NCBI RefSeq assembly: GCF_030013595.1
Contig: NZ_CP122768.1
Direction: 5' to 3' (one strand)
DNA length: 64,000 bases
Source of the DNA: Escherichia coli
GTDB taxonomy: Bacteria; Pseudomonadota; Gammaproteobacteria; Enterobacterales; Enterobacteriaceae
Position numbers and translations under genes: made by a program. Within the stretch, counting starts at the first letter, position 1, and every line of letters starts with the position of its first letter. Positions 7,396 through 50,524 of the stretch are shown in pieces. A model generated the notes under the pieces. It saw only the letters and a program-made list of their open reading frames with translations. It did not search any database and was not told the DNA's origin.

Positions 7396-7622
7396 TCCTT
7401 TATATTCAATGAAATAAGTTGGTTTTTAAAGGGTTTTATTGTTGAAGGCAACCGCGTTGTGTCTTTCACCAAAATCAATCAGTTGCGTTCTGGTTTTGGA
7501 GAATGTTTTTTGAGGCTTTTTGTTAAAGCCTGTTATGCATTGCCTCAATTAATAACCGTTTCCCCAGCCCTCCCAACCTTCAAAAGTCGGGAGGGTTCTA
7601 AACACCAGTTGCGATTGATTTA

Positions 7623-8195
7623 TTAGCCAATACCAAACGCTCGGATTGAACCCAAATCCTCCAGATTGTTCAGATCCTCTTTCATTTCACGCTGACGGCG
7701 ATAAATCTCGTCATTGCGATCGACCTGAGCCTGCGCCATTGCTGCCGCCAGCTCCTGAAGCTGTGCCATTGTCAGAGTGACAAGGTTATTTGCTGCATCC
7801 CCCCATCCCAGCGTTGACCGCGTACCTGCAACCTTTGTCGCCATTGCCACGGGCGCAATACGACTTATTGAGTCTGCACCACCATTCCAGGTACGACCGT
7901 TCCATTCGAACGTGAACGGCTGCGCCTCCTGTTCTGTGCGCCATGCTTCGATTTCCTGGCGTTTGGCGGCTTTTGCTGCTTCCAGCATTTCAGGTGATAC
8001 AGTGAACGGGGCTATATCCCCCCATTTACCGCTTTGCAGCTCCTGCCAAATTTGCTGGCCTGTTGTTGCTGTGTCTTCTGGTGTAGATGTGTAGGGGATG
8101 AAATCTTTCATCCCCTCAAATAACACTTCACAGTCAATTGCGCCATTCTCCAGCCTGCGGGCGTTTTTGATTTCTTTTATTTTTATCCCATTCAT
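7623..8195 (-). CDS. tail fibre assembly protein (Tfa)
   Basis: 190-aa ORF directly downstream of a fibre gene; Tfa/gpG-like architecture. Confidence 0.7.
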   Translation of the reverse strand: MNGIKIKEIKNARRLENGAIDCEVLFEGMKDFIPYTSTPEDTATTGQQIWQELQSGKWGDIAPFTVSPEMLEAAKAAKRQEIEAWRTEQEAQPFTFEWNGRTWNGGADSISRIAPVAMATKVAGTRSTLGWGDAANNLVTLTMAQLQELAAAMAQAQVDRNDEIYRRQREMKEDLNNLEDLGSIRAFGIG

Positions 8196-9598
8196 CAGGA
8201 AACTCTCACAAACAGACCGAAAATAAAATCGCTGGTCGCCTGAGTGCTGTTGCCCAGAGAGACATAGGCTCCCGAAAAGTGGCGTCCAGTATCCAGCACA
8301 TACCGTGGTGCTCCGTCATTCGACACTATAACAGCGCAGGGAATCAGAGTGCTGCCGCTTACGCTGTCACCACGTTTTATCGTATATTCATCAGTATTTG
8401 CTGCACGGTACGCGGCCTGAGTTAAGCCGCCAACTGCCACATCTCTGAATGGTACGTCGTACCACGGGCCAGCTATGTTATACAGCCATCTCGCACCATC
8501 TATCGCGGTTAAGTTTTGACTCAGGCATGTCCAGCGTATGTTCGTACTGTCCGCCCTGACCTCACAACAATACACGTCCTGATTAACCCCGTTAAAAATG
8601 ACAAACTTATCGCGCCTGTTTTGATTTTCATGCGTTGCTGTTTCCAGCATTTTTATCTCTACCTCTCCGCTAAAAACAACCCCTTCTATAATGTCCTTGG
8701 AATATGGGCCACCATATTGAACGACAAGATAGCGCCCCGGGGGAGTGGTCTGTACCCAAGAAGCAAATGTTGCTGATGTCGCGTATTTATCAAACTCCTT
8801 ACGTTGTGTGGGATACGCGCCATAACCGAAAGCTCCCGGAAGTGCCACACAACCTTCAGTTCGGTTGTAAATGTCTGTTTGTACATCCATCGTTGCAGCA
8901 CTTTTCAACCCCAGATTGTCTCGGGATTCCTGCTGAGCATCTTCCCCCTCTGCTGCAATTTCTGACAGGTGATTCGCCGTTTTCAGCGTTGCAGATAACG
9001 CAACATCAATATCATCTCTGGCCTGCTCTGCATCGGATGCGGCCTGTTTGGCGGCTTCAGCATCCTGCCTGACTTCTTCGGCGGTATCCTCAACCTGCGA
9101 GGCCAGCTGTTCAACGCGCTGCGTGTTTTCCTCCACAGCATTTGTATTCTGCTGAACATTATCTGCCAGCGTTTCAACCTGCTCTTTTATCAGAGCTGCC
9201 GCTTCAGCATGTTGCCCTGCCTGTCGTTCGCTTTCCGCTGCCGCTTCCGCGCTCTGCTGCGCCTGCACCACCAGTTCTTCGAACCGCTTAACAACATCTG
9301 GCTTCAGGTCGCCTTCATCGAGAGCGGTCAGGAAGTCGTTCAGCGTGCCGTGCTTTGAATCGTCGTAAACCGAAATATCACCGACACAATATTCTCTTTC
9401 AATACATGACCGAAGATAAACGTCATATCTTCCGGTCTGAGCCTCAAATGCATATTCTCCTGCCGGCCCCGTCACCACTGTTGCCACCGTTCTCATGACC
9501 ACTGCGGATGTATTCTGTCGGGCTTTCAGAATAATATGGTATCCGGACATGGGGAGTCCCGCACCATCCGTCAGCACACCCGAAATTAATACAGACAT
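8195..9598 (-). CDS. side tail fibre protein, lambda Stf-like N-terminus
   Basis: N-terminus (ISGVL.DG.G.P…LKAR.N.S…VY.DS.HGTLNDFL) resembles the lambda Stf N-terminal domain; acidic coiled-coil middle; followed by Tfa. Confidence 0.75.
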   Translation of the reverse strand: MSVLISGVLTDGAGLPMSGYHIILKARQNTSAVVMRTVATVVTGPAGEYAFEAQTGRYDVYLRSCIEREYCVGDISVYDDSKHGTLNDFLTALDEGDLKPDVVKRFEELVVQAQQSAEAAAESERQAGQHAEAAALIKEQVETLADNVQQNTNAVEENTQRVEQLASQVEDTAEEVRQDAEAAKQAASDAEQARDDIDVALSATLKTANHLSEIAAEGEDAQQESRDNLGLKSAATMDVQTDIYNRTEGCVALPGAFGYGAYPTQRKEFDKYATSATFASWVQTTPPGRYLVVQYGGPYSKDIIEGVVFSGEVEIKMLETATHENQNRRDKFVIFNGVNQDVYCCEVRADSTNIRWTCLSQNLTAIDGARWLYNIAGPWYDVPFRDVAVGGLTQAAYRAANTDEYTIKRGDSVSGSTLIPCAVIVSNDGAPRYVLDTGRHFSGAYVSLGNSTQATSDFIFGLFVRVS

Positions 9599-10920: not shown

Positions 10921-11389
10921 AGTATTTCAGCTCCAGTGTGAACGTTTTGTTCTTTGGCGCCCCGCCGGGAAGAAAGGACGTGGTGTTATCTGAATAGGCG
11001 GTTGCCACGAAATACCCCATCACATCGCCTGTACTTGAGACCAGTAACTGCGGGGCCGGATTGTCATCCACCATCTGAACCAGCGTATCAAGGGCATCCA
11101 TTCCCACACCGTCACGAAATCCCGCATGCACCATGCCTTCAAGGGTTATTGTTCTGGCCCCCTTACCGGTATACTGCAGCAGGTCGTTTTTTCCGATAAG
11201 CTGCTGTTCATCCCATCGCCATTCCATAGTGCGCTTCATGGCGTTATAGGCTGCCGTATCAATACTGAATTCAAACTCACCAAACGACAGCATGACGCGG
11301 GAGGCGACATCCGTTAATGAACCCACCGCATCCCATGCTTCACGTTCAAGCCGGTTTACGCCCCAGCCCAGCAAATCCACCATGTTCAC
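10895..11389 (-). CDS. tail protein U-like
   Basis: 164-aa ORF immediately downstream of the tape measure gene, as in P2. Confidence 0.6.
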   Translation of the reverse strand: MNMVDLLGWGVNRLEREAWDAVGSLTDVASRVMLSFGEFEFSIDTAAYNAMKRTMEWRWDEQQLIGKNDLLQYTGKGARTITLEGMVHAGFRDGVGMDALDTLVQMVDDNPAPQLLVSSTGDVMGYFVATAYSDNTTSFLPGGAPKNKTFTLELKYYGEKLADH

Positions 11390-13044
11390 CCCCAGAATGC
11401 ATCACCATCGGTCATGCGGGAACGCTGACCAAAATTAATATCTCCCAGATTTTTCGTTACCCTGTCTGCCAGTTGTCCGGCATCCTCGCCGGGCTTCTGG
11501 GTGATGTTAAATTCCGCCCGTATCTGATACGTGGGTTTTACTTCCACCCGGCTGATACTGCCGGGGGTATGCTGAAGCGCTGAAAGGCGGTCAGCCTCCC
11601 CCGATGCGGGTTCCTGACGAGTTTTCTGTAGTTGATCGCGGGCAGCGCGAACACGCTCCCTCGCCCCATCAAAATCAGGTTCTTCCTTCGGTCCCAGCAA
11701 AGGATCGAGAAATGCATCAAACTTTTTATCGTCATGGTTCCAGGGGAGATAACCGCGGGTGTCTTTATAAGCCTGTACAACCTGTTTCGTCAGCTCCGGA
11801 TTTTTCCTGAGCAGTTCATCAAACCATTCACCCTGACCGTTTTTCTGCGCCACCGCTCTCGCCAGCTCAGGCGAACCCATTTTTGCCAGATATTCCAGCA
11901 CCTCTCGCCGGTCCTCCCGCGAATCATCCGCCAGCCCCCACTCAATGGCTTTCTGCGTTATTCCTGCAAGAACTTTTCCGAATTTCCACATCCACTCGGA
12001 CAAATCGATCAACGCCGGCAGGGCATCATCAAGGATAAATGCCTGAATCTTCTCAAGGCCACCCTCCTTAAACCAAGCCGCAAGATCATCCGTCACCTGT
12101 TGGATACGTGGCGCAAGCTCATTACCCAGTTGTCCGCTGATTTCATCAATGGAAGAACTCAAAACATTACGGAGATTTGACAGCGCCACATGCCCCTGAA
12201 CTGCGCCATCAGCCCCTTCTTTTGTCACCAGGTTATAGCGTTTCTGCTCACTGATAAGCTCCCGGAAGGTTTTTCCTGACAGACGCATCCAGGTCAGAAT
12301 TTTATTGGCCTCCCCCCCAAACAGCGCATCTGCCATCCCCGCCGCCTGCTGCTCATTCTCCACCTGCAGTAAGCGATCAAACAAAAATTCGACCTGTTCC
12401 TGGTTGTTTTTTCCGGCCATTACGCCCGCTTTCAGCCCCAGTTTACCGAATACCTCCTGAATGGCTCCTTTGTCCGTGGCACCATTATCATCGTCAAAAA
12501 CCTTGTTCCGGTATTCCTCAAACAGATCACCAATGTTTTCGCCGTTTAACCCCATCTGACGGCCCAGTGAATCCCACGCCGCATAGGTTTCGTAATCCAC
12601 CCCATAACTCCGGGCTATCCCTGCCCGCTCTGCCGTTTCCGAATTCCGGTTCAGTACCGCGCTGGCACCTGCTGCCAGCGTCAGCCCGGAACCAACAGAG
12701 AGCCCGAGTCCGGTTTTAAGAAATGTCCCTGCCCGTCCTTTCCAGCGTTCCAGGCGCTCTGCCCGTTCAAGCTGGCGATTAAATCGCTCCTGCTCCGCTG
12801 CAGCATCATTGATTTTCCGTTTCAGCTTTTCATACTGCTTTCGCAGATCGGTAATATCCTGCCCTGCCAGTACGCCAGCCTGAATTTTTCGCTTCAGTAC
12901 ATCCTGCTGACGCGTCAGGCGTGCCACTTCCTGTGTCGCACCAGCCAGACCTCGCTTCAGCCCCTCTGTCGATTTTTTCCACGACGGGTCAATAGTGCCG
13001 CCGATCCGGATATTCGCTCTGAGGTTATCGCCCACCGTTGCCAT
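11386..13044 (-). CDS. tail tape measure protein
   Basis: 552-aa ORF, coiled-coil-rich, positioned after the E/E' chaperone. Confidence 0.8.
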   Translation of the reverse strand: MATVGDNLRANIRIGGTIDPSWKKSTEGLKRGLAGATQEVARLTRQQDVLKRKIQAGVLAGQDITDLRKQYEKLKRKINDAAAEQERFNRQLERAERLERWKGRAGTFLKTGLGLSVGSGLTLAAGASAVLNRNSETAERAGIARSYGVDYETYAAWDSLGRQMGLNGENIGDLFEEYRNKVFDDDNGATDKGAIQEVFGKLGLKAGVMAGKNNQEQVEFLFDRLLQVENEQQAAGMADALFGGEANKILTWMRLSGKTFRELISEQKRYNLVTKEGADGAVQGHVALSNLRNVLSSSIDEISGQLGNELAPRIQQVTDDLAAWFKEGGLEKIQAFILDDALPALIDLSEWMWKFGKVLAGITQKAIEWGLADDSREDRREVLEYLAKMGSPELARAVAQKNGQGEWFDELLRKNPELTKQVVQAYKDTRGYLPWNHDDKKFDAFLDPLLGPKEEPDFDGARERVRAARDQLQKTRQEPASGEADRLSALQHTPGSISRVEVKPTYQIRAEFNITQKPGEDAGQLADRVTKNLGDINFGQRSRMTDGDAFWG

Positions 13045-13470
13045 AACACTGCTTCCTCTCTTCCGCCTCTGCCAGCATTATTGCCACAAAATCCTCATAC
13101 GGCAGTGCCATCACATCTCCGGGTGACCACCCGAACCATACTCCGGCACGCCGTATCGCCATCAGGATGTTTTCTTCTTCCGCCGGACCGGCGGCAGCAA
13201 AAAAACATTAAACTGCCGCTCCAGGGCCAGGTAATCACACGCTTCCATGTTCATCATGTCTGCCGCGTCCATCCCGCACAGACCGGCAATCATATCCAGA
13301 TCAGCCTCTGCTTCCGGTTTGGTACTCCGGCGATGCAACAGACGATCGCGGACGGTGGGCGCACGCATGGTGACGTGCGTGATCGTCTGTCCTGATGCGG
13401 TGACATACGGCACGGATAACACAATTTCCACGCAGCTGGCAGGAACACTGTTTTTTTCCGACATAAGCAT
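13025..13470 (-). CDS. predicted E+E' tail chaperone fusion via programmed -1 frameshift
   Basis: Minus-strand heptamer t-ttt-ttg at about 13198-13204; the -1 frame stays open for ~57 codons to a stop at about 13025, overlapping the tape-measure start as in P2 E/E'. Confidence 0.45.
13162..13470 (-). CDS. tail assembly chaperone E-like
   Basis: 102-aa ORF between tube and tape measure genes; contains slippery T_TTT_TTG near its 3' end. Confidence 0.65.
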   Translation of the reverse strand: MLMSEKNSVPASCVEIVLSVPYVTASGQTITHVTMRAPTVRDRLLHRRSTKPEAEADLDMIAGLCGMDAADMMNMEACDYLALERQFNVFLLPPVRRKKKTS

Positions 13471-13522
13471 CTCCTAAAAAAAGAAAAGGCGGCCTGAGCC
13501 GCCTGAATGGCAGATCCCCGGA

Positions 13523-14041
13523 TTAAACCCGGATGATTTTTTTCAGATCCGACAGAACATTAACGCCGTTAATACGACGTACAAATTCCTCCGGAATAAT
13601 GCAGATGGTTTCCAGGCCATCGACAGCCTGACGGTAATAACTCAGTGACATTTCCACTGTCACCGAAGCCTCTGCCTGTGATGTTGCCGGACGTGCATCC
13701 GGCGTGATACTGGTGATCATCCCCTGCAGGGTTTCCACCTGTCCGCTGGTCGCATTTCCCACCCGATAAGCCTGGCGCACAACAATCTCCGGCGAATAAA
13801 GCCCGGCCTGCAATCCCAGCAGCGTAAGCATGGCAACATCATAACCATAAATCTTAAACGAACAGGTCAGCGCTTCCATGCCGTCATCCACTGCCACCGG
13901 TGCATCCATTGCGCCGGTTTTGATATCCACTGTCGTGATATTAATGGCAGGCGGCGTGTATTCATGCGCACCCTGAAGGCGGATCCCGCCAGGAAGAAAT
14001 AACGCCCATGCACGCAACAGTTTTTTTTCACCCGTAATCAT
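13523..14041 (-). CDS. tail tube protein (FII-like)
   Basis: 172-aa ORF directly downstream of the sheath gene. Confidence 0.75.
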   Translation of the reverse strand: MITGEKKLLRAWALFLPGGIRLQGAHEYTPPAINITTVDIKTGAMDAPVAVDDGMEALTCSFKIYGYDVAMLTLLGLQAGLYSPEIVVRQAYRVGNATSGQVETLQGMITSITPDARPATSQAEASVTVEMSLSYYRQAVDGLETICIIPEEFVRRINGVNVLSDLKKIIRV

Positions 14042-15513: not shown

Positions 15514-15567
15514 ACATTTCTCCCATAAAAAAACCGCCCTCAGGCGGTCAGATGATTAACTTCTTTT

Positions 15568-16115: not shown

Positions 16116-17465
16116 TTACAAACTCGCTACATTTCGCCAGACACCATTAATCAGAACCTGCACCGGGCGTGCATTGGCCCAGTCCACACTTTCACCGCCA
16201 TCAACACCACTCAGTAAATGACCTGATGGCGCATTTCCTCCGCGTCCAATACCAATGGCACCTCCCAGACGCACATCCTGCACACCACCTGTTCTGGTCT
16301 GGTAACGGGCATCAAAATTTCCGTAGTTTGATGGAACCATCTGCCCGTTTACGGCAAACGTTATGCTGTTATCCGTATTCCTCTGACTGTAAAAATGCCA
16401 GCCAGAATCATCACCAAGCTCTGCAACAACAGGCCTTGAGGAATTTCCCCATAGACTAAATCTTGCACTCTTCGTGGAAGAACTGTCACACGACAGCGTG
16501 AACTTTCTTAAATTGCCGGTCGAGAGATTTTCTAATGCCAGCACACCGTTTTTTGTAAAACGAAAGGCGTTGTGTCCCTCTGCAAACACATTAATAACAC
16601 CGCGTCCGCCCCACTTAAAACCGGTATTGCTATCACAGAGCGTGAGTGATTTTTCACCCAGATTGTTCTCATTACCGATGCCAATCCTGTCACCAATAAC
16701 CACATCGCCCTGGCGCAGGTTAATGGAAATGGGCCGCAGTGGGCCAATATCACCATTTTCTCCATGGTCTTCCTGCGTGGGAATGAAGTGCAGGTAATCT
16801 TCTGAACGACGAAAAATCAGGCCAAAAGCCTCGTTGAAAATCCTCAGCGCATTAACACCACGGATTTTCAGTTCCCCGGTCATGGTGTCACCATCACGCT
16901 GAACGGCATTTTTTGCCTTGTCCACCGTGGGTTTTAATCCGAGGTTTTCAACAGCCTCATCCTTGTCTTCCACATCCGAAAGATTCTTTTTTCGTTGCAG
17001 ATAGCGTCTGTCTCCGATTTCCTGAGTAATAATGGCCCTGTCCGGATCAACTTCCAGCACCACGTTTTGTGCGTGCGTCAACCCAAGAACCAGCGTCAGA
17101 ATAACTTCCTTGATAACGGAGTCCGTCTGGTCTGGTAAAAAGGTGTCGGGATAACGTCCGTACGCGATAAGCGTACCTCTGTCGCTGATCATCCCCAGTT
17201 CACGAAGGGTTTTACCGGGGTATGATTTACAGTCAATCACAATATCCCCGCTGATGAAGCCCTCCTCCACCGCACCGTCGGAAAAGGGTTCCTGCCCGAA
17301 TTCGCCGTACAACGATGTCATTGCTGCCATTTCATCCGGCGTGGATGGCAATGCACGCCCGCCCCCGTCACCAAGCAGAACATGCCGGACGGTCACGGTT
17401 TGCCCGTTCTGATATGCTGCTTCAATTTCTGCAGCGCCGGACGTTGTCAGAATCAGTCCATTCAT
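16116..17465 (-). CDS. tail fibre protein (gpH-like)
   Basis: 449-aa ORF after baseplate I, Gly-rich C-terminal region. Confidence 0.7.
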   Translation of the reverse strand: MNGLILTTSGAAEIEAAYQNGQTVTVRHVLLGDGGGRALPSTPDEMAAMTSLYGEFGQEPFSDGAVEEGFISGDIVIDCKSYPGKTLRELGMISDRGTLIAYGRYPDTFLPDQTDSVIKEVILTLVLGLTHAQNVVLEVDPDRAIITQEIGDRRYLQRKKNLSDVEDKDEAVENLGLKPTVDKAKNAVQRDGDTMTGELKIRGVNALRIFNEAFGLIFRRSEDYLHFIPTQEDHGENGDIGPLRPISINLRQGDVVIGDRIGIGNENNLGEKSLTLCDSNTGFKWGGRGVINVFAEGHNAFRFTKNGVLALENLSTGNLRKFTLSCDSSSTKSARFSLWGNSSRPVVAELGDDSGWHFYSQRNTDNSITFAVNGQMVPSNYGNFDARYQTRTGGVQDVRLGGAIGIGRGGNAPSGHLLSGVDGGESVDWANARPVQVLINGVWRNVASL

Positions 17466-26666: not shown

Positions 26667-26872
26667 AGCCCCACTCCTGCCGGGCCGCGACGCCGTCCGG
26701 ATACGCCCAGCGCACTTTCCAGCTCTTCAATATACTGACGCAGTTCACCAATCGTCGCCCGCGAATACTGAACCTGACGCCCGTCCTTGCTGACGGAAAC
26801 CACAGCACGTCCGATCATCAGTTCATGTAATGCCCGGCGGGCATCACAAAGCATTTCATGCGTATAAACCAT
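26663..26872 (-). CDS. head-tail joining protein W (lambda gpW-like)
   Basis: 69-aa ORF; …RRRGPAG C-terminus like lambda W. Confidence 0.8.
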   Translation of the reverse strand: MVYTHEMLCDARRALHELMIGRAVVSVSKDGRQVQYSRATIGELRQYIEELESALGVSGRRRGPAGVGL

Positions 26873-26875
26873 TCT

Positions 26876-28792
26876 TTATCCTCCACTCAGTGCAGCCGCG
26901 ATTTCTTCCAGACTCATCTCATCGTCGTCCTGCTCATCTCTTCTGGCACGGGCCAGTGCTTCAAGATCCAGCTGCCACCGCTGAACTGAAATACGCAGGG
27001 CAGCATAGGCATATACCAGGCAGTCGAGGGCTTCGTTGCGTCGCCCTTTTTTATCCCACAGCAGTTTCACCCTGCCATTAACCACCTTCTCCACCAGCTC
27101 TTCCGCCACGATCTGACGCGCCTCTTCTTCCGAAAAAATGTCGGGGTTATCAGGAAAACGGAAGGTGTACGGGGCGGCTTCACTGGCAGAGACCACTGGC
27201 AGGGCAAAACGGGCGTACAGCATTTCCTTGACGGTATCGGAGCCCACCTCACACAAAAACACACCACGCTGGTTGCGCTTTTTGGGCATGGTGATCACCG
27301 GCTTGCCGTACACCGATGCCCCTTTTATGGGAAGCACAAAAAAAGTGCCGTGTTTCCTTGAACGCTGATACACAATGTCCTGGTCGATACCACCGGTATC
27401 CCAGCAGACACGGGAAATGGAAATTTCAGTACCGTCAGCATGACGATATTTTTTCCGGATCACCGTATCAACACGTTTAAGGGTGTCCTCGTCTTCCGGT
27501 CGCCCCATGATAATTTGCTTATCAATCAGAAAGGCTTCTTCGCCGGGAGCCCAGCCCCAGACATAAATTTCATAGCGATCTTTCTGGGAGTCGATCCCGG
27601 CGGTCAGGTAAACCACCCGCAGGGGAACCTGCGCACCATAGTGGCAGACCTTTTCCAGTAACAACTCAAAACTCAGCTTTTCTGCCACAGCCTCTTCATA
27701 GGGCTCCCCGAGCGTGGTGTTAATAAACGTCTTGACGCCGTTCGGATCCTTCAGCGCATCCAGCCAGTCATAAACAATCTGTACCCAGGTGGTGAACGGA
27801 CTATACGCCGTCCAGATGTGGAAAGTGACGGAGCGCGGCGGTGGCATCTCCTCATCGCCGGCGCTGTAAAATGCCAGGCCGTCGCGCGTCCACATCCCGG
27901 TATTGTCACAAATCCAGCGCCCGTCGGTCTGGTCAAGTTCCGACTGCCGGATCACACAGCCATTATGTTCACACAGGTAATACACCGTTTCCGGTTTACC
28001 CTTCTCCCATTTCAGGCCAAATGGCGTCGCATCATCGCCAAACTTCAGATACTGGGCCTCCCCGCAATGAGGGCAAGGGACATAAAACCGCATGAAATGC
28101 GCTGATTCATTTGCGGCTTTCTCAATCTGGCAGGAGCCTTTAATTTTTGGCGTTGAGCCACGTATGGATTTAGGCCATACCGAGCCTTCGATACGCTTAT
28201 CGCCAAGCAGCGTCGGCGAACCTTCTTTTTCCACATCCGGTTCAAACGAGGAGAGTTCGTCATAGCAGACCACATCCACAGATTTTTCACGGTAGTTTTT
28301 AGCAGCGGCGCCGCCAAGGCACCAGAAACCCACACCGGAGGAAAAACGCTTCAGGGTGAGTGTATTATCGCGGTGCTTTCTTCCGAACCATGGAGCCAGC
28401 TCCAGCAATGCAGGAACATCCCTGATCGTTGGCTCAACATGAGATTTCATGAAATCTTCTGCAGCAGAATCTGTTGGCTGAAAAAGCAGACTGTTACGGG
28501 ATTTATGCTCAATAAAATAAGCCTCCACCCCCAACAGCATTTTGGTGTAACCAACGCGCGCCGATTTAATCAGATTAACGGTGCGGATCCGGTCATTTCC
28601 CATGCTGTTCATAATGGCAACCTGAAACGGCAGGGTTTCCCATTGTCCGGGAGTGTATGAAGATTCTTTCGGCAGATAATAATGTTGATCAGCCCACTGA
28701 ACCGTCGTCAGTGGAACCGGAATATTGAGAGATAAAAGCCCTGTAGCTATCGCACCGGCTGCATTAGCTGCCTTCTGTGCGTCTGAAATCAT
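26876..28792 (-). CDS. terminase large subunit (lambda gpA-like)
   Basis: Track ORF 26876-28834; strong resemblance to lambda A (YYLPKES, KSARVGY.KMLLGV.AYFIEHK, Walker-like motifs); start placed at MISDAQ. Confidence 0.9.
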
Positions 28793-32045: not shown

Positions 32046-32159
32046 AACACCCCGTCAAAGGCACCCGCAGATACCTTTTGTGTGGTGTATTCAGATTTGA
32101 CATACGCTGAGCAGGGCGAAGAAATGAAAAAGGCCCGCAGTAGCGAGCCATGAAGAAAC

Positions 32160-32195
32160 TGAATAAAAAAAAACCGCCTGGTACGGCGGTTAAGA
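32160..32195 (-). terminator. intrinsic terminator-like hairpin (ccgccgtaccaggcgg + T9 on the minus strand)
   Basis: Stem-loop followed by nine T residues on the minus strand, downstream of the tRNA cluster. Confidence 0.55.
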
Positions 32196-32453
32196 TGAAT
32201 TTCCAGGTTTTGCTTAATACGTGATTAATCTCAACGTTTTTTATAGATGTTAACAACATCGGAATGATGCATCACCGGCCCTGTCAGGAAATACAACATC
32301 TCCACCGATAATGCACCATTACGCTGTTGTAAAAAGACAGCACTGGGCTGTAACCGATATCACGTATTACAGAACAGGATGTGGATAAAGATTCAGGAAA
32401 ACATCCCACATATAATATGTCAGTGCCCAAAACAACCTGGTATCGTCTACTGC

Positions 32454-32528
<75 letters not shown>

Positions 32529-32531
32529 ATA

Positions 32532-32607
<76 letters not shown>

Positions 32608-32609
32608 AC

Positions 32610-32686
32610 TGGACCGCCACCGGGGACTCGAACCTCGCACACTCAACTTAAAGGGTTGACGCTCTTTCCCGATGAGCTAGTGGCGG
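32610..32686 (-). tRNA. tRNA with nominal anticodon UUU (Lys) but atypical anticodon loop (C at position 33)
   Basis: Acceptor ccgccac/gtggcgg, GGTTCGAGTCC T-loop, anticodon arm tcaac-CCTTTAA-gttga; one mismatch in the T-stem. Confidence 0.45.
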
Positions 32687-32687
32687 T

Positions 32688-32763
32688 TGGTGGCCCTTGC
32701 TGGATTTGAACCAGCGACCTGGCGATTATGAGTCGCTCGCTCTCACCACTGAGCTAAAGGGCC
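32688..32763 (-). tRNA. tRNA-Ile2 (anticodon CAU, ileX/ileZ-like)
   Basis: Sequence closely resembles E. coli minor tRNA-Ile (GGCCC.TTAGCTCAGTGGT.AGAGC…GACTCATAATCGC…GGTTCAA.TCC…GGGCCACCA). Confidence 0.7.
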
Positions 32764-32973
32764 GGGCGCAGGATAATAACGTTACAAAATCAATGTTGCA
32801 AGCATTCAAAAATCACCTGGTTAAAAATCACCCTTACTTCCTCCACCAGCGCATTCACCATGTCTATCCGAGATAAGTGGCACAAAAAAAACCACATTTG
32901 GGCGGGTTTTGTTTGCTTTTGCCATCACGTACAAAATCGGCAAAATATCAGATTTGCATAAAATATATGCCTT

Positions 32974-44639: not shown

Positions 44640-47102
44640 ATGAGCGCTGATAAAGAAGAAATTGCACTATATTACGAAGCCAAAAATGACAAAGTCAGAA
44701 AACGCCTTGGGATTAAAGGCGGTTTTTACTGGCGCACAGCAAAAAAATTATCGATTGCAATATCACGCGGTGTTGTCGCAATGGACGATGCCGGATTTGA
44801 CGAAGAGGATTTTAAAAAACCTGTTCGCGTCCATTTACCCGTTGTGAATGACCTTCCTCCGGAAGGCGTGTTTGATACCGAATTCTGCAACCGATACGAA
44901 AAAGGCGGGGAAGATGGTATCACAATGGTACTTATCGCGCCCTCTGTTCAGGACAAACCAGCCAGCACTGACAATACCAACGTCAACGGTGAAGACATGA
45001 CTGAGATTGAGGAGAATATGCTCCTGCCAGTTTCAGGTCAGATTCTGCCTGTTCGATGGCTGGCGCAACACAACAGCGAAAAACCGATCACGCACGTTTC
45101 GCGGGACGAACTGCGCGCATTACATAACGCACAGGATGAAAAACTTCCCGCCGTTACCGCGCTGGCCATCTCAAATAAAGCAGCGCAACTCGAACCACTG
45201 GAAATTCGCGATCTCCACAAACTGGTACGCGACACTGACAAAGTTTTCCCTAATCCTGGTAATTCAGACCTGGGACTGATGACCGCTTTTTTCGAAGCAT
45301 ACCTGGGCGCTAACTACACCGATCGCGGTCTGCTTACAAAAGAGTGGATGAAGGGAAATCGTGTTTCACGTATCACCCGCACGGCTTCCGGCGCTAATGC
45401 TGGCGGCGGGAACAAAACCGATCGCAATCCGAATTTAGTACACACCTTCGATACGCTGGATGTGGAGATTGCAGCAGCCACACTTCCGATGGATTTTAAT
45501 ATTTATGAAATTCCGGGCAGCGTTTATCGTCGCGCAAAAGAAGTCGTCCGGAAGAAAGAAAGTCCGTTCAAAGAATGGTCCGCAGCACTTCGCGCAATCC
45601 CGGGTATCCTGGATTATTCCCGTGCCGCTATTTTTGCACTTATCCGGAGCGCCCACCCTGAACTTTACCTCTACAGGGTACGCCTTCAGGTGTATATCAA
45701 CGCCCACTTAACGGAGACTGATCACGAGAATCCTACCGAGGAAACTCTCGCTGCTGCACGACATACACCGGAAAAAGATATCCTGGAAGAAGTTAACCGC
45801 GAACTGGCTGCTGCTAAACACGAAACAGAAGAAGAAAAAAATAATGAGGAAAAATCACAACCGTCTGACGCAATGGCAGATGAACAGGCAACGACTGAAA
45901 CAATGGAGCCGGATACAACTGAACATCGCCAGGACACGCAATCGCTGGATACTCAGGCGCAGATAGATCCGGTTAATCAGGTAAAAGTTACCGCTGACGA
46001 AGTAAACAAAATTATGCAGGCAGCCAATATCAACCAGCCTGACGCCAATCAGTTGCTTGCTGTATCACGTGGTGAATTTGTTGCAGGGATTAGCGACCCG
46101 AATGATCCGAAATGGGTGAAGGGGATTGAAACCCGCGATTCAGTGAATCAGAACCAGCAAGAAATGGAACAGAACGACCAGAAAGCGGAAAAAAACAGCC
46201 CAAATGCGTTACAAAACGAGCCAGAAACGAAACAACCTGAGCCAGTAGCGCAACAGGAATCGGAAAAAGTCTGCACCGCCTGCGGTCAGAGCGGTGGCGG
46301 CAGCTGCCCTGATTGTGGCGCGGTGATGGGCGACGCAACATACCAGGAAACATTCGATGAAGAGAATCAGGTTGAAGTTCAGGAAAATGATCCGGAGGAA
46401 ATGGAAGGCGCTGAACATCCACACAAGGAGAATGCTGGCAGCGCTCAGGACCACGCCAGCGATAATGAAACTGGCGAGACGGCAGATCCCTTAATTGCGG
46501 TGAACGGTCATCACGTTATCACATCCACCAGCAGAGTGTGGTACCACCTGATGATCGACCTTGAAACAATGGGAACCAACACCAATGCGCCCATCGTGGT
46601 TATTGGTGCGGTTTTCTTCGACCCACAAACAGGGGAAATCGGGCCAGTATTTTATATCGTTATCAGTCTGACTGACGCAATGAATACAGGGGCTGTTCCT
46701 GACGGTGGAACCATCGAATGGTGGCTGAAGCAGTCCAGTGAAGCCAGAGCTGCCATTTTAACAGACCAGGTAAAACTGAAGGATGCCCTTTCGCGGTTTC
46801 GGGAGTTCATCAACGAATACTCAGATGAAAAATTCGTTCAGGTATGGGGTAATGGTGCAACTTTCGATAACGCAATTTTGCGCACCTCATACGAACGTCT
46901 GGACATCCCCTGCCCGTGGCGCTACTACAACGATCGCGATGTACGCACAATCGTTGAGCTGGGAAAAACCATCGGTTTTGATGCCAGAACAGCTATCCCG
47001 TTCGAAGGTGTACCCCACAATGCACTGGATGATGCCCGTCACCAGGCGAAATACGTTTCAGTAATCTGGCAAAAACTGATCCCGAGTCAGGCTGATTTTT
47101 AA
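44640..47102 (+). CDS. large multidomain protein: N-terminal domain of unknown function, acidic linker, CxxC-x-CxxC zinc ribbon, C-terminal DnaQ-like (DEDDh) 3'-5' exonuclease domain
   Basis: 820-aa ORF; C-terminus has DLET…, FDNAIL and HNALDDA motifs in exonuclease order; zinc ribbon CTACGQSGGGSCPDCG; long E/Q/D-rich linker. Confidence 0.6.
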   Translation: MSADKEEIALYYEAKNDKVRKRLGIKGGFYWRTAKKLSIAISRGVVAMDDAGFDEEDFKKPVRVHLPVVNDLPPEGVFDTEFCNRYEKGGEDGITMVLIAPSVQDKPASTDNTNVNGEDMTEIEENMLLPVSGQILPVRWLAQHNSEKPITHVSRDELRALHNAQDEKLPAVTALAISNKAAQLEPLEIRDLHKLVRDTDKVFPNPGNSDLGLMTAFFEAYLGANYTDRGLLTKEWMKGNRVSRITRTASGANAGGGNKTDRNPNLVHTFDTLDVEIAAATLPMDFNIYEIPGSVYRRAKEVVRKKESPFKEWSAALRAIPGILDYSRAAIFALIRSAHPELYLYRVRLQVYINAHLTETDHENPTEETLAAARHTPEKDILEEVNRELAAAKHETEEEKNNEEKSQPSDAMADEQATTETMEPDTTEHRQDTQSLDTQAQIDPVNQVKVTADEVNKIMQAANINQPDANQLLAVSRGEFVAGISDPNDPKWVKGIETRDSVNQNQQEMEQNDQKAEKNSPNALQNEPETKQPEPVAQQESEKVCTACGQSGGGSCPDCGAVMGDATYQETFDEENQVEVQENDPEEMEGAEHPHKENAGSAQDHASDNETGETADPLIAVNGHHVITSTSRVWYHLMIDLETMGTNTNAPIVVIGAVFFDPQTGEIGPVFYIVISLTDAMNTGAVPDGGTIEWWLKQSSEARAAILTDQVKLKDALSRFREFINEYSDEKFVQVWGNGATFDNAILRTSYERLDIPCPWRYYNDRDVRTIVELGKTIGFDARTAIPFEGVPHNALDDARHQAKYVSVIWQKLIPSQADF

Positions 47103-47163: not shown

Positions 47164-47433
47164 ATGAGCGAACAGTACCTGATAACGCTCGACGAGTGGA
47201 AACCAAAACGGTTCAGTCTCCCAATAACAAACACCACCCTGGTGAAATACGGAAAACTAGGATACATCGTTCCAAGACCACAAAAAATTCGTGGGCGTTG
47301 GCTGATAGATCGCCGGGCAGTATTTGTTGGACCTGGTGAAACAGGAATTGCGCCGGAAATTCATACTGGCGATGATGATGCACTGAAGGAGATTTTAACT
47401 CATGTCACCGAGGCCACGAAAAAACAGCACTGA
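47164..47433 (+). CDS. xis: excisionase (Xis-like)
   Basis: Small ORF just upstream of int, overlapping its start; winged-helix-like segment resembling lambda Xis. Confidence 0.6.
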   Translation: MSEQYLITLDEWKPKRFSLPITNTTLVKYGKLGYIVPRPQKIRGRWLIDRRAVFVGPGETGIAPEIHTGDDDALKEILTHVTEATKKQH

Positions 47434-48520
47434 CGTAGCCGGTCTTTACGAAAAGTTTGATCGCAGAACTGGCAGGGTTTACTACCAGTATAAAAACCCT
47501 GTGACTGGAAAATTTCACGGACTCGGAACAGACAAAGGTAAGGCAGAAAAAATCGCTTCCACAGCCAATCAGCGAATAGCTGCAGCAGAGGCTGAATATT
47601 TCATGCGCAAAATTGATGAAAGTCCGTCAGCAACAAAACGTCGGGGTATCAGATTAAAGGCATGGGTTGATCGATATCTGAAAATACAGGACGCGCGACT
47701 GAAAAATGGAGATATTGCAGCTACAACTCACAAAGAAAAAGCCCGAATGGCTGCATACCTGGTTTCCCGTCTGGGAAACCACCCATTGAAAGAACTGGAA
47801 GTAAGAGACTTTGCATTAATACTGGATGAGTGGCTGGATAAAGACATGGTCAGCACAGCGAGAGTAAATCGCGGATTATGGGTTGATATTTATAAAGAAG
47901 CACAGCATGCAGGGGAAGTTCCTCCTGGATGGAATCCTCCGGAGGCTACCCGTAAACCGATCCCTAAAGTAACCAGAGCCAGGCTCACCATGGAAGACTG
48001 GCAAAAAATTTACAATGCAACGCCTGAAAAACACTTTATCCGTAACGCAATGCTTCTTGCGATTGTTACTGGTCAGCGCCGTGATGACATTTGCCACATG
48101 CGTTTTTCAGATGTGTGGAACGAACACTTGCATATCACCCAGGGAAAAACCGGAATGCGTCTGGCGTTACCGCTTACACTACGCTGTGATGCCATTGGGA
48201 TAACGTTAAAAGAAGTTATTGATGGGTGCCGAGACAGAATATTAAGTCCATATCTAATCCATAGTCGGCACCAGAAACAACCGAAGCCGATGAGTAAAGA
48301 CAACCTGAGCGACTACTTTGCCAAAGCACGGGATCTGGCTGGGATAATTCCACCAGCAGGAAAAACTCCGCCAACATTTCATGAACAACGCTCTCTATCA
48401 GAACGGCTGTACCGTGCACAGGGTATCGATACAAAAACATTACTAGGACATAAAGTCCAGGCAACCACCGATCGCTATAACGATACTCGAGGTCAGGAAT
48501 GGGTTAAGTTGGTTATTTGA
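47402..48520 (+). CDS. int: tyrosine integrase (lambda Int family)
   Basis: 372-aa ORF with catalytic-domain motifs (R…, HxxR-like LLGH, C-terminal Y in TDRYND) next to attR. Confidence 0.9.
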   Translation: MSPRPRKNSTDVAGLYEKFDRRTGRVYYQYKNPVTGKFHGLGTDKGKAEKIASTANQRIAAAEAEYFMRKIDESPSATKRRGIRLKAWVDRYLKIQDARLKNGDIAATTHKEKARMAAYLVSRLGNHPLKELEVRDFALILDEWLDKDMVSTARVNRGLWVDIYKEAQHAGEVPPGWNPPEATRKPIPKVTRARLTMEDWQKIYNATPEKHFIRNAMLLAIVTGQRRDDICHMRFSDVWNEHLHITQGKTGMRLALPLTLRCDAIGITLKEVIDGCRDRILSPYLIHSRHQKQPKPMSKDNLSDYFAKARDLAGIIPPAGKTPPTFHEQRSLSERLYRAQGIDTKTLLGHKVQATTDRYNDTRGQEWVKLVI

Positions 48521-48686: not shown

Positions 48687-49481
48687 ATGATCGGTCGACT
48701 GCTTCGCGGCGGTTTTATGACCGCTATCTACGCGTACCTGTATATTCCAATCATTATTTTGATTGTGAACTCTTTCAACAGCTCGCGCTTTGGCATCAAC
48801 TGGCAGGGTTTTACCACTAAATGGTATAGCCTGCTGATGAACAACGACAGTCTGTTGCAGGCAGCTCAGCATTCATTGACGATGGCGGTGTTTTCAGCGA
48901 CGTTTGCTACGCTTATCGGTTCACTGACGGCAGTTGCGCTGTACCGTTATCGCTTTCGCGGTAAACCGTTCGTTAGCGGAATGCTGTTCGTGGTGATGAT
49001 GTCGCCAGATATTGTGATGGCGATTTCTCTGCTGGTGCTGTTTATGCTGCTGGGTATTCAGCTTGGCTTCTGGTCGCTGCTGTTCTCGCATATCACCTTC
49101 TGCCTGCCGTTTGTGGTGGTGACGGTGTATTCGCGCCTGAAAGGTTTTGACGTGCGAATGCTGGAAGCGGCGAAAGATCTCGGTGCCAGCGAATTTACCA
49201 TTCTGCGAAAAATCATTCTGCCACTGGCAATGCCAGCGGTAGCGGCGGGCTGGGTGTTAAGCTTTACCCTGTCGATGGACGATGTAGTAGTTTCTTCGTT
49301 CGTCACCGGACCAAGCTATGAAATTCTGCCGTTAAAAATTTATTCGATGGTCAAAGTCGGCGTATCGCCGGAAGTTAACGCGCTGGCAACCATATTACTG
49401 GTGCTGTCGCTGGTGATGGTAATTGCCAGCCAGCTTATTGCTCGTGATAAAACGAAAGGTAACACAGGGGACGTTAAATGA
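48687..49481 (+). CDS. potC: spermidine/putrescine ABC transporter permease
   Basis: 264-aa polytopic permease ORF; start overlaps the native potB stop. Confidence 0.95.
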   Translation: MIGRLLRGGFMTAIYAYLYIPIIILIVNSFNSSRFGINWQGFTTKWYSLLMNNDSLLQAAQHSLTMAVFSATFATLIGSLTAVALYRYRFRGKPFVSGMLFVVMMSPDIVMAISLLVLFMLLGIQLGFWSLLFSHITFCLPFVVVTVYSRLKGFDVRMLEAAKDLGASEFTILRKIILPLAMPAVAAGWVLSFTLSMDDVVVSSFVTGPSYEILPLKIYSMVKVGVSPEVNALATILLVLSLVMVIASQLIARDKTKGNTGDVK

Positions 49482-50524
49482 AAAAATGGTCACGCCACCT
49501 GCTCGCGGCGGGTGCTCTGGCACTGGGCATGAGCGCCGCTCACGCCGATGACAACAACACGCTGTATTTCTACAACTGGACCGAGTACGTGCCGCCAGGA
49601 CTGCTTGAACAGTTCACCAAAGAAACCGGTATTAAGGTTATCTATTCGACTTACGAGTCGAACGAAACCATGTACGCGAAGCTGAAAACGTACAAAGACG
49701 GTGCCTATGACCTGGTGGTTCCTTCAACCTATTACGTCGATAAAATGCGTAAAGAAGGGATGATCCAGAAGATCGACAAGTCGAAGTTAAGCAATTTCAG
49801 CAACCTCGATCCAGACATGCTCAACAAGCCGTTTGACCCGAATAACGACTATTCCATTCCGTATATCTGGGGTGCGACGGCGATTGGCGTTAACGGTGAT
49901 GCGGTAGATCCGAAATCCGTTACCAGCTGGGCCGATCTGTGGAAGCCTGAGTACAAAGGCAGCCTGCTGCTGACCGACGATGCCCGTGAAGTGTTCCAGA
50001 TGGCGCTGCGCAAACTGGGCTACTCCGGTAACACTACCGATCCGAAAGAGATTGAAGCTGCATATAACGAGCTAAAAAAACTGATGCCAAACGTAGCAGC
50101 GTTTAACTCCGATAACCCGGCTAACCCGTACATGGAAGGCGAAGTTAACCTCGGCATGATCTGGAACGGTTCTGCTTTCGTTGCACGCCAGGCGGGTACG
50201 CCTATTGACGTGGTGTGGCCGAAAGAAGGCGGTATTTTCTGGATGGACAGCCTGGCGATCCCAGCAAATGCCAAAAACAAAGAAGGCGCGCTGAAATTGA
50301 TCAACTTCCTGCTGCGCCCAGATGTGGCAAAACAGGTTGCAGAAACTATCGGTTATCCAACGCCAAACCTTGCGGCGCGTAAGCTGTTAAGTCCGGAAGT
50401 GGCGAACGATAAAACGCTCTACCCGGATGCTGAAACCATTAAAAATGGTGAATGGCAGAATGACGTTGGCGCAGCCAGCAGCATTTATGAAGAGTATTAT
50501 CAGAAGCTGAAAGCAGGACGTTAA
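49478..50524 (+). CDS. potD: spermidine/putrescine periplasmic binding protein
   Basis: 348-aa ORF with signal peptide, solute-binding fold. Confidence 0.95.
   Translation: MKKWSRHLLAAGALALGMSAAHADDNNTLYFYNWTEYVPPGLLEQFTKETGIKVIYSTYESNETMYAKLKTYKDGAYDLVVPSTYYVDKMRKEGMIQKIDKSKLSNFSNLDPDMLNKPFDPNNDYSIPYIWGATAIGVNGDAVDPKSVTSWADLWKPEYKGSLLLTDDAREVFQMALRKLGYSGNTTDPKEIEAAYNELKKLMPNVAAFNSDNPANPYMEGEVNLGMIWNGSAFVARQAGTPIDVVWPKEGGIFWMDSLAIPANAKNKEGALKLINFLLRPDVAKQVAETIGYPTPNLAARKLLSPEVANDKTLYPDAETIKNGEWQNDVGAASSIYEEYYQKLKAGR

Follow-up and report, generated by a model that had tools for sequence, protein, structure and literature searches.

The tail module and its chaperone gene

We analyzed a 64,000-nucleotide stretch of an Escherichia coli genome (contig NZ_CP122768.1), referred to below as the window. 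The site studied here lies in a prophage of ~41 kb that is integrated between potB and potC and whose head genes are lambda-like, not P2-like. Its contractile-tail module has the order sheath, tube, E, tape-measure-like, U-like, X, and D-like, which resembles the FI-FII-E-T-U-(X)-D order of phage P2 (Table 1). The structural region in the window is uninterrupted and 99.7 to 99.8% identical to that of ETEC6335, in which all head and tail genes are annotated as intact, and Stx2e-carrying prophages of porcine E. coli are among the near-identical relatives. Besides, 701 nt of the window match E. coli UMNF18 at 100%; the relative in that strain has a frameshifted portal gene, and a Mu-like prophage is inserted in its tail-fibre gene. 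The view that the host prophage is split, with a Mu-like prophage and another tail module next to the site, was dropped after direct comparison confined the insertion to UMNF18. A megablast search with the tail module gave no match among sequenced phages, and relatives were found at the protein level only.

The E-like product is named a phage tail assembly protein by PGAP (WP_001291419.1), is assigned to PHROG 166 (tail protein), and matches Pfam PF10109 (Phage_TAC_7, tail assembly chaperone E/41/14) over residues 14 to 89 (2e-11); the same profile matched 11 of the 11 family members scanned, at best with 9e-16. In NCBIfam, no model matched E, the E+E' fusion, or the tape-measure protein, and a sequence search of solved structures returned no relevant match. 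An in-frame ATG at 13470 precedes the one at 13464 (ORF 13470..13162). The second ATG is likely the true start and the first is probably unused, since AGGAG is located 6 nt upstream of ATG 13464 and both the PGAP choice and the alignment of all homologues agree with it; with this start, E has 100 aa and the predicted fusion 146 aa.

The tube protein matched TIGR01611 (tail_tube) with 1e-18, a score under the curated cut-off, and PF04985 was seen in its homologues. The tape-measure-like protein matched PHROG 3654 strongly and several tape-measure PHROGs less well (2e-11 at best), and in some genomes PGAP names it a phage tail tape measure protein. E thus sits between the tube and tape-measure genes of a contractile-tail module, as a P2-type chaperone pair does. 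The terminator-like hairpin ahead of E, whose stem is unchanged in nine E. coli alleles, is a possible attenuator that would lower expression of E and the downstream genes.

Table 1. Features of the chaperone locus, in the order of transcription (window coordinates)
Feature	Position	Strand	Remarks
Tail tube gene	13523..14041	minus	Directly upstream of E; PGAP: phage major tail tube protein
Terminator-like hairpin and T tract	13487..13504	minus	Between tube gene and E; 7-pair stem, 6 GC; tail TTTCTTTTTT
E-like tail assembly chaperone gene	13464..13162	minus	Zero frame, 100 aa; stop at 13164-13162
GGAG within CTG GAG	13222..13219	minus	14 nt 5' of heptamer (15 nt before its second base); candidate Shine-Dalgarno-like stimulator
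Slippery heptamer T_TTT_TTG	13204..13198	minus	X_XXY_YYZ phase; P-site TTT, A-site TTG
E' coding extension	13025..13198	minus	-1 frame; 57 codons and TAA at 13027-13025
GC hairpin CUG-CCGCCG-GUC-CGGCGG-AAG	13177..13197	minus	Core stem 3 nt past heptamer; -11.7 kcal/mol
45-aa ATG ORF	13025..13162	minus	Separate PGAP call, hypothetical protein WP_156841731.1
Tape-measure-like gene	11386..13044	minus	552 aa, ATG at 13044; position as P2 T

The slippery heptamer and the -1 frame

The zero frame near the 3' end of E reads ...CAG TTT AAT GTT TTT TTG CTG CCG..., so that T_TTT_TTG stands 11 codons ahead of the E stop, and a seventh T at 13205 lengthens the run (T7, 13205-13199). The initial annotation had placed this heptamer on the minus strand at about 13198-13204, followed by an open -1 frame of ~57 codons that ends ~19 nt inside the tape-measure ORF and gives a fusion of ~146 aa. 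We found the heptamer at exactly these positions and in the correct phase. The -1 frame, which is shut by a TAA (13210-13208) just 5' of the T run and opens at the run, continues for 57 sense codons, and the predicted E+E' has the proposed 146 aa when counted from ATG 13464. The E' end is likewise located as described, with the overlap corrected to 20 nt from the positions of the E' stop and the tape-measure ATG.

The combination of a heptamer with an open frame is not significant by itself. In the window, ORFs of 90 aa or longer comprise 27,136 codons and hold 118 XXXYYYZ heptamers in phase. Of these heptamers, 12% are followed by a -1 frame that stays open for 57 codons or more, and the scan included several spurious examples. 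These counts imply that a heptamer in the last 20 codons together with such an extension is expected in ~1% of ORFs. Thus, the significance of the site derives from its position between tube and tape measure and from its conservation, not from the pattern alone.

In public annotation, the C-terminal part of the fusion appears as the 45-aa hypothetical protein or is left uncalled. WP_156841731.1 occurs on 928 contigs and is labelled hypothetical every time, and the E protein of the prophage family is found on at least 1000 public contigs; the fused E+E' sequence was not found in a collection of 15 billion proteins. We interpret the 45-aa protein as the C-terminal part of E', and the predicted E' is reached solely via the shift.

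Conservation of the signal and of the extension

We compared nine E. coli alleles of 87 to 100% identity. A 41-nt block around the slip site, including the heptamer, is invariant in all nine, and the -1 extension is 57 codons long in each. The stretch that codes only for E' (117 nt) has 29 variable sites, distributed 5/5/19 over codon positions 1/2/3 of the -1 frame; by this distribution, purifying selection acts on the -1 frame.

Seven more distant homologues, at 38 to 79% identity, hold T_TTT_TTG (T_TTT_TTA in one of them), and the codon ahead of it varies among GTT, GAT, AAT, and GCT. Leu in the A site is encoded by TTG or TTA in 9/9 lineages, versus 17/90 for the other Leu codons in the same ORFs. 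An open -1 frame of 54 to 64 codons is present in all 17 distant loci and ends near the tape-measure start wherever that start is annotated. Loss of the -1 extension in homologous prophages had been named as one finding that would speak against the prediction; the extension is kept in 9/9 alleles and in 17/17 distant loci. Furthermore, an alignment of the fusions from 11 family members shows no gaps over the junction, two-frame tblastn matches were obtained in phages KP12, Phi06_2974B, and PhiKM, and the E' motif AAAG.AE...IRRAG.WFGW is conserved from the T run onward in all relatives.

The closest sequenced phages are Hafnia phage yong2, Citrobacter phage Chris1, and related enterobacterial prophages, which have the order sheath-tube-E-(E')-tape measure-U-X-D as in the window. 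Their E proteins are 37 to 45% identical to E of the window, the E' motifs are the same, and the -1 E' ORF spans 57 to 79 codons (57 to 63 in all but one locus). This clade, however, is without the heptamer. Its site, GTT TTT ATG, offers just a U_UU.U tetramer, on which the slip would fall one codon earlier, so the family as a whole does not share the exact site. Tetramers of the U_UU.U type are shift-prone in E. coli mainly with a stimulator (PMC4066793).

Comparison with P2 and lambda

The P2 RefSeq record gives a -1 frameshift site at T_TTT_TTG and a joined E+E' coding sequence. Like the P2 gpE/gpE+E' pair (FETUD operon), the window has this heptamer, with its phase unchanged, toward the 3' end of a PF10109 gene of ~90 to 100 aa, located between the tube (FII) and tape-measure (T) genes, and a -1 extension of 57 codons after the shift whose end overlaps the tape-measure ORF by a few nucleotides. 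The E/E'-like arrangement proposed in the initial annotation is supported by these features and by the conservation of the -1 extension. The fusions are of 142 aa in P2 and 146 aa in the window, and the overlaps with the tape-measure gene are 8 and 20 nt, respectively. The efficiency of the P2 E/E' shift is ~10%. The P2 arrangement has been described as conserved among P2-like phages (PMC3931495). The window differs from P2 in having an X-like LysM gene between U and D and lambda-like head genes, and the protein identity is only ~24%, with no significant pairwise BLAST match. Moreover, P2 E' belongs to Pfam PF06528 (Phage_P2_GpE), as in P2-like fusions, whereas this profile did not match E' of the window or of the family members even at E <= 10; membership of PF06528 was accordingly dropped.

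Profile comparison with P2-like E+E' fusions (hhalign) was colinear through the junction and weak (probability 10 to 30%, E = 3e-3 to 5e-4); the best comparison covered 112 columns at E = 5e-4 and a probability of 30%. An AlphaFold model of the fusion (pLDDT 84, pTM 0.76) has a helix running through the junction. Foldseek placed this model closest to a tape measure chaperone of 137 aa from Burkholderia phage Mica (E = 5.7e-6, 124 columns), and N15 GT is among the further matches.

Lambda gpG/gpGT follows the same logic, in which a -1 shift near the gene end, just upstream of the tape-measure gene, gives a minor fusion. The lambda slippery heptamer is G_GGA_AAG. Lambda has no sequence similarity to the window, its tail is non-contractile, and its T forms a gene-sized frame of its own ahead of H. 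A review (PMC5009743) assigns tape-measure binding to the part shared by gpG and gpGT, and binding of the tail tube protein to the extension.

Candidate stimulators

Two elements close to the heptamer were considered as stimulators. The upstream GGAG is kept in 9/10 sequences of the heptamer clade, and the Glu codon of CTG GAG is GAG in 9/9, compared with 28 GAG to 37 GAA (43%) elsewhere in the same ORFs. Its spacing fits the 6- to 17-nt range of Shine-Dalgarno-like stimulation (PMC4066793). Since GGAG doubles as conserved Leu-Glu coding and the sequences share ancestry, these observations are suggestive of a stimulator role for this candidate and go no further. The E. coli dnaX -1 signal has an upstream Shine-Dalgarno-like stimulator, to which GGAG in the window is a possible parallel, but its heptamer is another one and the window is without a conserved downstream hairpin.

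A stimulatory stem-loop or pseudoknot 3' of the heptamer, which the initial annotation had suggested seeking, did not emerge: folding, covariation, and Rfam, which had no match at the site, yielded no conserved structure of this kind 5 to 9 nt downstream. The local GC hairpin, with a 3-nt spacer, does not exceed shuffled sequence in stability (z = 0.14), and in relatives, substitutions break its pairs without compensation; 71% of cells are paired, and 5/8 pairs depart only by unpaired cells. It is probably not a conserved stimulator. A larger fold (13100-13225) has z = -2.36 and is without covariation support.

Proposed mechanism and alternative explanations

Taken together with the identity of E and its neighbours, we consider it highly probable that this contractile-tail module encodes a P2-type E/E+E' tail chaperone pair via a -1 frameshift at T_TTT_TTG. 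Most ribosomes would remain in the zero frame and produce the 100-aa E. A minority would slip back by one nucleotide at the heptamer, with P-site tRNA-Phe and A-site tRNA-Leu re-pairing on T-TT and T-TT, and would then translate the 57 codons of the -1 frame into the 146-aa E+E', ending 20 nt into the tape-measure gene. A slip one codon earlier, on a U_UU.U tetramer, would give a fusion of equal length with Phe replacing Leu at residue 90; the predicted junction peptide is ...QFNVFLAAAGPAEEENILMAIR with the heptamer slip and ...QFNVFFAAAGPAEEENILMAIR with the tetramer slip. The -1 motifs that shift most efficiently in E. coli do not include U_UU.U_UU.G (PMC4066793), and the shift efficiency may therefore be low. 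If E/E+E' of P2 and G/GT of lambda are a guide, the N-terminal part common to both products would bind the tape-measure protein, recruitment of tail-tube subunits would fall to the E' domain, and the frameshift would set the E : E+E' ratio.

We infer that the shift is ribosomal, although an extra U in some transcripts, added by RNA polymerase slipping on T7, would also put E' in frame. Seven T's in a row (13205-13199) are present, and a T6 genomic variant is known (P0003, 25 members), which indicates that indels arise readily in the run, either in the DNA or during sequencing. For E. coli RNA polymerase to slip efficiently, however, runs of ~9 or more are usually needed, and the runs of the relatives are shorter, with six T's (GAT/AAT/GCT TTT TTG) or five. 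The conserved element is a heptamer in the correct phase that includes a TTR Leu codon, and the identical P2 heptamer is recorded as a translational frameshift; polymerase slippage is thus an improbable source of the fusion. It is more improbable still that E' is an independent small gene, translated without any frameshift from ATG 13162 or from a GTG/ATG near 13113 behind GGAG. PGAP does call the 45-aa protein in many genomes, the authors of the yong2 record likewise called a separate small ORF, and an internal GGAGATGTGATG might act as a weak start. Yet ATG 13162 is replaced by ACA or ACG in 5/9 alleles, while the frame and the protein stay conserved on both sides of it, and no Shine-Dalgarno sequence precedes it. 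Protein conservation in all relatives begins at the T run, well upstream of the candidate starts, which is exactly where the -1 frame of the window opens.

The explanation to which we give the least credence, amounting to a very slight chance, is that the pattern arose by chance or survives as an inactive relic, and that the -1 frame is silent in this prophage. The ~1% chance rate per ORF would allow a coincidence, and prophages are often defective, the UMNF18 relative with its insertion and broken portal gene being a case in point. Against this stand the purifying selection on the -1 frame, its conservation across genera, and the near identity of the uninterrupted structural region to the intact ETEC6335 prophage.

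Implications

The -1 frameshift reading also raises a question about the evolution of the signal. The heptamer clade with its upstream GGAG and the sister clade with a bare tetramer might mean that the recoding signal moved and changed type within one chaperone family, a proposal that we make tentatively and regard as rather doubtful. In the heptamer clade, GGAG could play a dnaX-like stimulator role that replaces a downstream structure. The T7 run in the window would permit both slip types, giving Phe or Leu at residue 90. If both clades shift, they would offer a natural series for studying the tuning of weak, stimulator-poor -1 sites that set chaperone ratios.

The site itself is of an ordinary and well-known kind among phages, overlooked here by public annotation. 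It adds one further case, well supported by comparison, of tailed-phage chaperones encoded via programmed frameshift and leaves existing knowledge unchanged, and a corrected annotation would recover a tail-assembly protein whose P2 counterpart is essential.

Predicted shift site and reading frames

The minus-strand tail-chaperone-like gene (E), located between the tail tube and tape-measure genes, ends with ...CAG TTT AAT GTT TTT TTG CTG CCG CCG GTC CGG CGG AAG AAG AAA ACA TCC TGA. The initial annotation had placed a slippery heptamer, T_TTT_TTG, at about 13198-13204 in this 3' end, followed by a -1 frame (E') open for ~57 codons, terminating ~19 nt inside the tape-measure ORF and giving an E+E' fusion of ~146 aa. 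All these statements were accurate to within 1 to 2 nt: the heptamer is present and in phase, a TAA (13210-13208) closes the -1 frame directly 5' of the T run, and the E' stop lies 20 nt within the tape-measure-like gene. Because AGGAG is found 6 nt 5' of the second ATG of E, which is also the start in PGAP and all homologues, E is 100 aa and the predicted fusion is 146 aa.

Coordinates of the features discussed (window positions)
Feature	Position	Strand	Remarks
E ORF	13470..13162	-	Second ATG (13464) taken as start; 100 aa
Heptamer T_TTT_TTG	13204..13198	-	X_XXY_YYZ phase; P site TTT, A site TTG
E' extension, -1 frame	Shift point to TAA 13027-13025	-	57 open codons
45-aa ORF (WP_156841731.1)	13025-13162	-	PGAP "hypothetical protein"
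Sheath gene	5' of E		PHROG 23
Tail tube gene	5' of E	-	TIGR01611/PHROG 55
Tape-measure-like gene, 552 aa	3' of E, ATG 13044	-	PHROG 3654 strong; several tape-measure PHROGs weak
U-like tail protein gene	3' of E
"Tail protein X" gene	3' of E
D-like gene	3' of E		Late control/VgrG-family protein
Terminator-like hairpin	13487-13504	-	Between tube gene and E
Terminator-like hairpin	15532-15549	-	Directly upstream of sheath gene
Second tail-fibre gene	8195-9598	-	"Prophage tail fiber N-terminal domain"
tRNA genes	32454-32763		Gly-tcc, Thr-tgt, Lys-ttt, Met-cat
Exonuclease VIII-like gene	44640-47102
372-aa ORF adjoining potC	47402-48520		Putative integrase
PotC	48687-49481
PotD	49478-50524

By itself, a heptamer with an open -1 frame is not more than chance. 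Across window ORFs of 90 aa or longer (27,136 codons), 118 in-phase XXXYYYZ heptamers occur, and after 12% of these the -1 frame stays open for 57 codons or more; the same scan also gave several plainly spurious cases. It is context and comparison that carry the weight.

Right after the slip site (13186-13197, minus strand), the zero frame reads Leu-Pro-Pro, with P91 and P92 invariant family-wide in the alignment, and the same nucleotides read Ala-Ala-Ala/Arg in the -1 frame. The invariant Pro-Pro may have a role in pausing or may be kept for protein reasons only. Besides, a 122-aa database variant (P0003; 25 member sequences) reads ...FNVFCCRRSGG..., corresponding to T6 instead of T7 at 13199-13205 (minus strand), which puts E into the third frame; this is either a genuine homopolymer indel or a sequencing error.

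Comparison with known tail chaperones

In phage P2 (NC_001895), E reads ...GGT TTT TTG TCG..., with the heptamer and phase identical to those of the window, and the record labels the spot as a misc_feature "site of -1 translational frameshift" and joins E and E' into one CDS (142 aa), which stops 8 nt inside T. PMC3931495, citing Christie et al. 2002, describes how P2 is organized here and that P2-like phages share this layout, and the lambda G/GT mechanism has been reviewed (PMC5009743). The gene order is likewise P2-like, and the proposed match to the conserved E/E' (lambda G/GT) arrangement is supported.

The E-like protein matched Pfam PF10109 ("tail assembly chaperone proteins E, or 41 or 14") at 2e-11, as well as PHROG 166. 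P2-like fusions carry PF10109 plus PF06528, and a Pfam search gave no PF06528 match in the window's E'. In profile-profile alignment, which was weak (probability, 10-30%; E = 3e-3 to 5e-4), family and P2-like fusions were colinear through the junction (FNVF-LAAAG versus VVGF-LVAELG). A tblastn search with the fusion gave two-frame matches over both parts in Klebsiella phage KP12, Phi06_2974B, and BcepMu-like PhiKM, the -1 frame encoding RWFRFQPGEIDAL... in PhiKM versus VWFGWSPGDVMAL... in the window. The AlphaFold model of the fusion is confident (pLDDT, 84 overall and ~90 for E' residues; pTM, 0.76) and has a helix (residues 75-92) spanning the junction. In BFVD, Foldseek ranked first a "tape measure chaperone" (137 aa) of Burkholderia phage Mica (E = 5.7e-6 over 124 aligned columns), and N15 GT and further tail assembly chaperones were also matched.

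Prophage context

The prophage (~41 kb, ~7400-48600) lies between potB and potC/potD, splitting the potABCD operon, and the 372-aa ORF may encode its integrase. It is a hybrid, its head genes resembling those of lambda and its contractile tail that of P2, with P2-like baseplate genes V-W-J-I-H; the tail module follows the P2 order FI-FII-E-T-U-D, except that X is inserted.

GC hairpins with T tracts flank the sheath and tube genes. The stem of the one preceding E is invariant in nine E. coli alleles, and this hairpin could be an attenuator, so that E, tape measure, U, X, and D would be expressed at a lower level than sheath and tube. The end of the prophage past the D-like gene holds the second tail-fibre gene and a DUF4376 gene (within 7600-9598, minus strand), which come in addition to an H-like fibre gene and fibre assembly gene that precede the sheath gene. 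Relatives differ most in this region (77-84% identity, or replaced).

In the related E. coli strain UMNF18, a complete Mu-like prophage interrupts tail-fibre gene H of the same prophage (junctions at window 17190-17193), and the UMNF18 portal gene is frameshifted as well. The Mu-like element has a transposase, a sheath, tube, and tape-measure set of its own, and two small ORFs preceding that tape-measure gene. Direct comparison showed that this insertion is absent from the window. A prophage of porcine strain ETEC6335 matches the window at 99.7-99.8% identity across head and tail genes; in it, stx2eA/B and tRNA genes (26685-28264 of that locus) separate the lysis genes from a DNA methyltransferase gene. 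In some relatives, therefore, this type of contractile-tailed prophage serves as a Stx2e vehicle. The window has the four tRNA genes listed above (region 32091-32785) and lacks a Stx2e A subunit.

Conservation of the -1 frame

The 701 nt around the shift site were found in 73 of 5426 complete E. coli genomes. Among nine alleles (87-100% identity), the 41-nt block CAGTTTAATGTTTTTTTGCTGCCGCCGGTCCGGCGGAAG is invariant with variable flanks; in one allele, UTAK-3, the zero frame stops sooner (E, 96 aa), with the -1 frame intact. Variable sites at -1-frame codon positions 1, 2, and 3 of the E'-only 117 nt numbered 5, 5, and 19 (5, 3, and 38 in the zero frame of E-only sequence), and therefore the -1 frame is protein-coding and under purifying selection.

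A one-genome-per-species scan, five database-homologue look-ups, and the two closest sequenced phages yielded 17 distant loci, with 37-79% identity to the window's E. The initial annotation had made its prediction depend on the extension being kept in homologous prophages, and it was: 57 codons in all nine E. coli alleles and 54-64 codons past the T run in all 17 distant loci, ending near the next gene's start wherever that start is annotated (overlap, usually few to ~25 nt). The heptamer is kept in seven (Salmonella, Trabulsiella, Citrobacter, Serratia, and three metagenome-derived contigs), once as T_TTT_TTA, after a varying codon (GTT, GAT, AAT, or GCT; V, D, N, or A) that always ends in T. 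In all nine lineages (window, UTAK-3, and the seven loci), Leu at the A site is encoded by TTG or TTA, codons used for just 17 of the 90 other Leu residues of these ORFs.

The remaining 10 loci (the clade of Hafnia phage yong2, Citrobacter phage Chris1, and eight related enterobacterial loci) read GTT TTT ATG, a U_UU.U tetramer one codon earlier with no heptamer; in E. coli, this tetramer is the third most shift-prone (PMC4066793). The sister clade keeps the -1 E' ORF with the tetramer in the heptamer's place, and shifting there is putative. Several members have a GCCCG...CGGGC stem starting ~5-6 nt past the ATG. Fusions built at either type of site align gap-free across the junction, with R105, G108, P122, F126, E133, and E135 invariant in E'.

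Possible stimulatory elements

A search for the stimulatory stem-loop or pseudoknot suggested initially gave no conserved structure downstream. The hairpin CUG-CCGCCG-GUC-CGGCGG-AAG (-11.7 kcal/mol; 3-nt spacer from the heptamer) was no more stable than shuffled sequence (z = 0.14), and substitutions among relatives break pairs rather than compensate. The fold of 13100-13225 was more stable than shuffles (z = -2.36), but covariation support was not found, and Rfam gave no match. In P2, a similar hairpin of 5 bp lies 1 nt past the heptamer, with a putative role only.

An upstream GGAG (13222-13219), 14 nt 5' of the heptamer, falls in the 6-17 nt range of experimentally validated SD-like stimulators (PMC4066793). 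It is kept in 9 of 10 heptamer-clade sequences, and its Glu codon is GAG in nine of nine versus 28 GAG to 37 GAA elsewhere, in lineages that are not independent and at a site also encoding conserved Leu-Glu; it is a candidate stimulator only. U_UU.U_UU.G is outside the most efficient E. coli -1 motifs (PMC4066793), and such modest efficiency would fit a low-level shift.

Alternative explanations and annotation status

PGAP treats the C-terminal part of E' as a separate gene, and yet independent initiation is contradicted, since five of the nine alleles have ACA or ACG in place of its ATG, with no PGAP call there, and protein conservation begins at the T run. That the heptamer and -1 frame are chance or a relic is contradicted as well, by the purifying selection and by conservation across genera. 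A run of T could also give the fusion by transcriptional slippage, which is disfavored because relatives keep just five or six T and the identical P2 heptamer is recorded as translational. By every comparative criterion applied, the frameshift appears to be real in this prophage family, where it is unannotated; both the initial observation and its interpretation are supported.

The exact E protein occurs on at least 1000 contigs and the 45-aa ORF on 928, every time as "hypothetical protein," and a 15-billion-protein collection lacks the 146-aa fusion. For this family, this is a systematic annotation gap. E/E' of the window, which has the P2 heptamer but a divergent E' domain and in which a conserved downstream structure was not found, would be a further, unannotated instance of the familiar tail-chaperone frameshift of the P2 E/E+E' (lambda G/GT-like) type. 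Its points of mild interest are the clade-specific heptamer/tetramer switch and the possible upstream SD-like stimulator.
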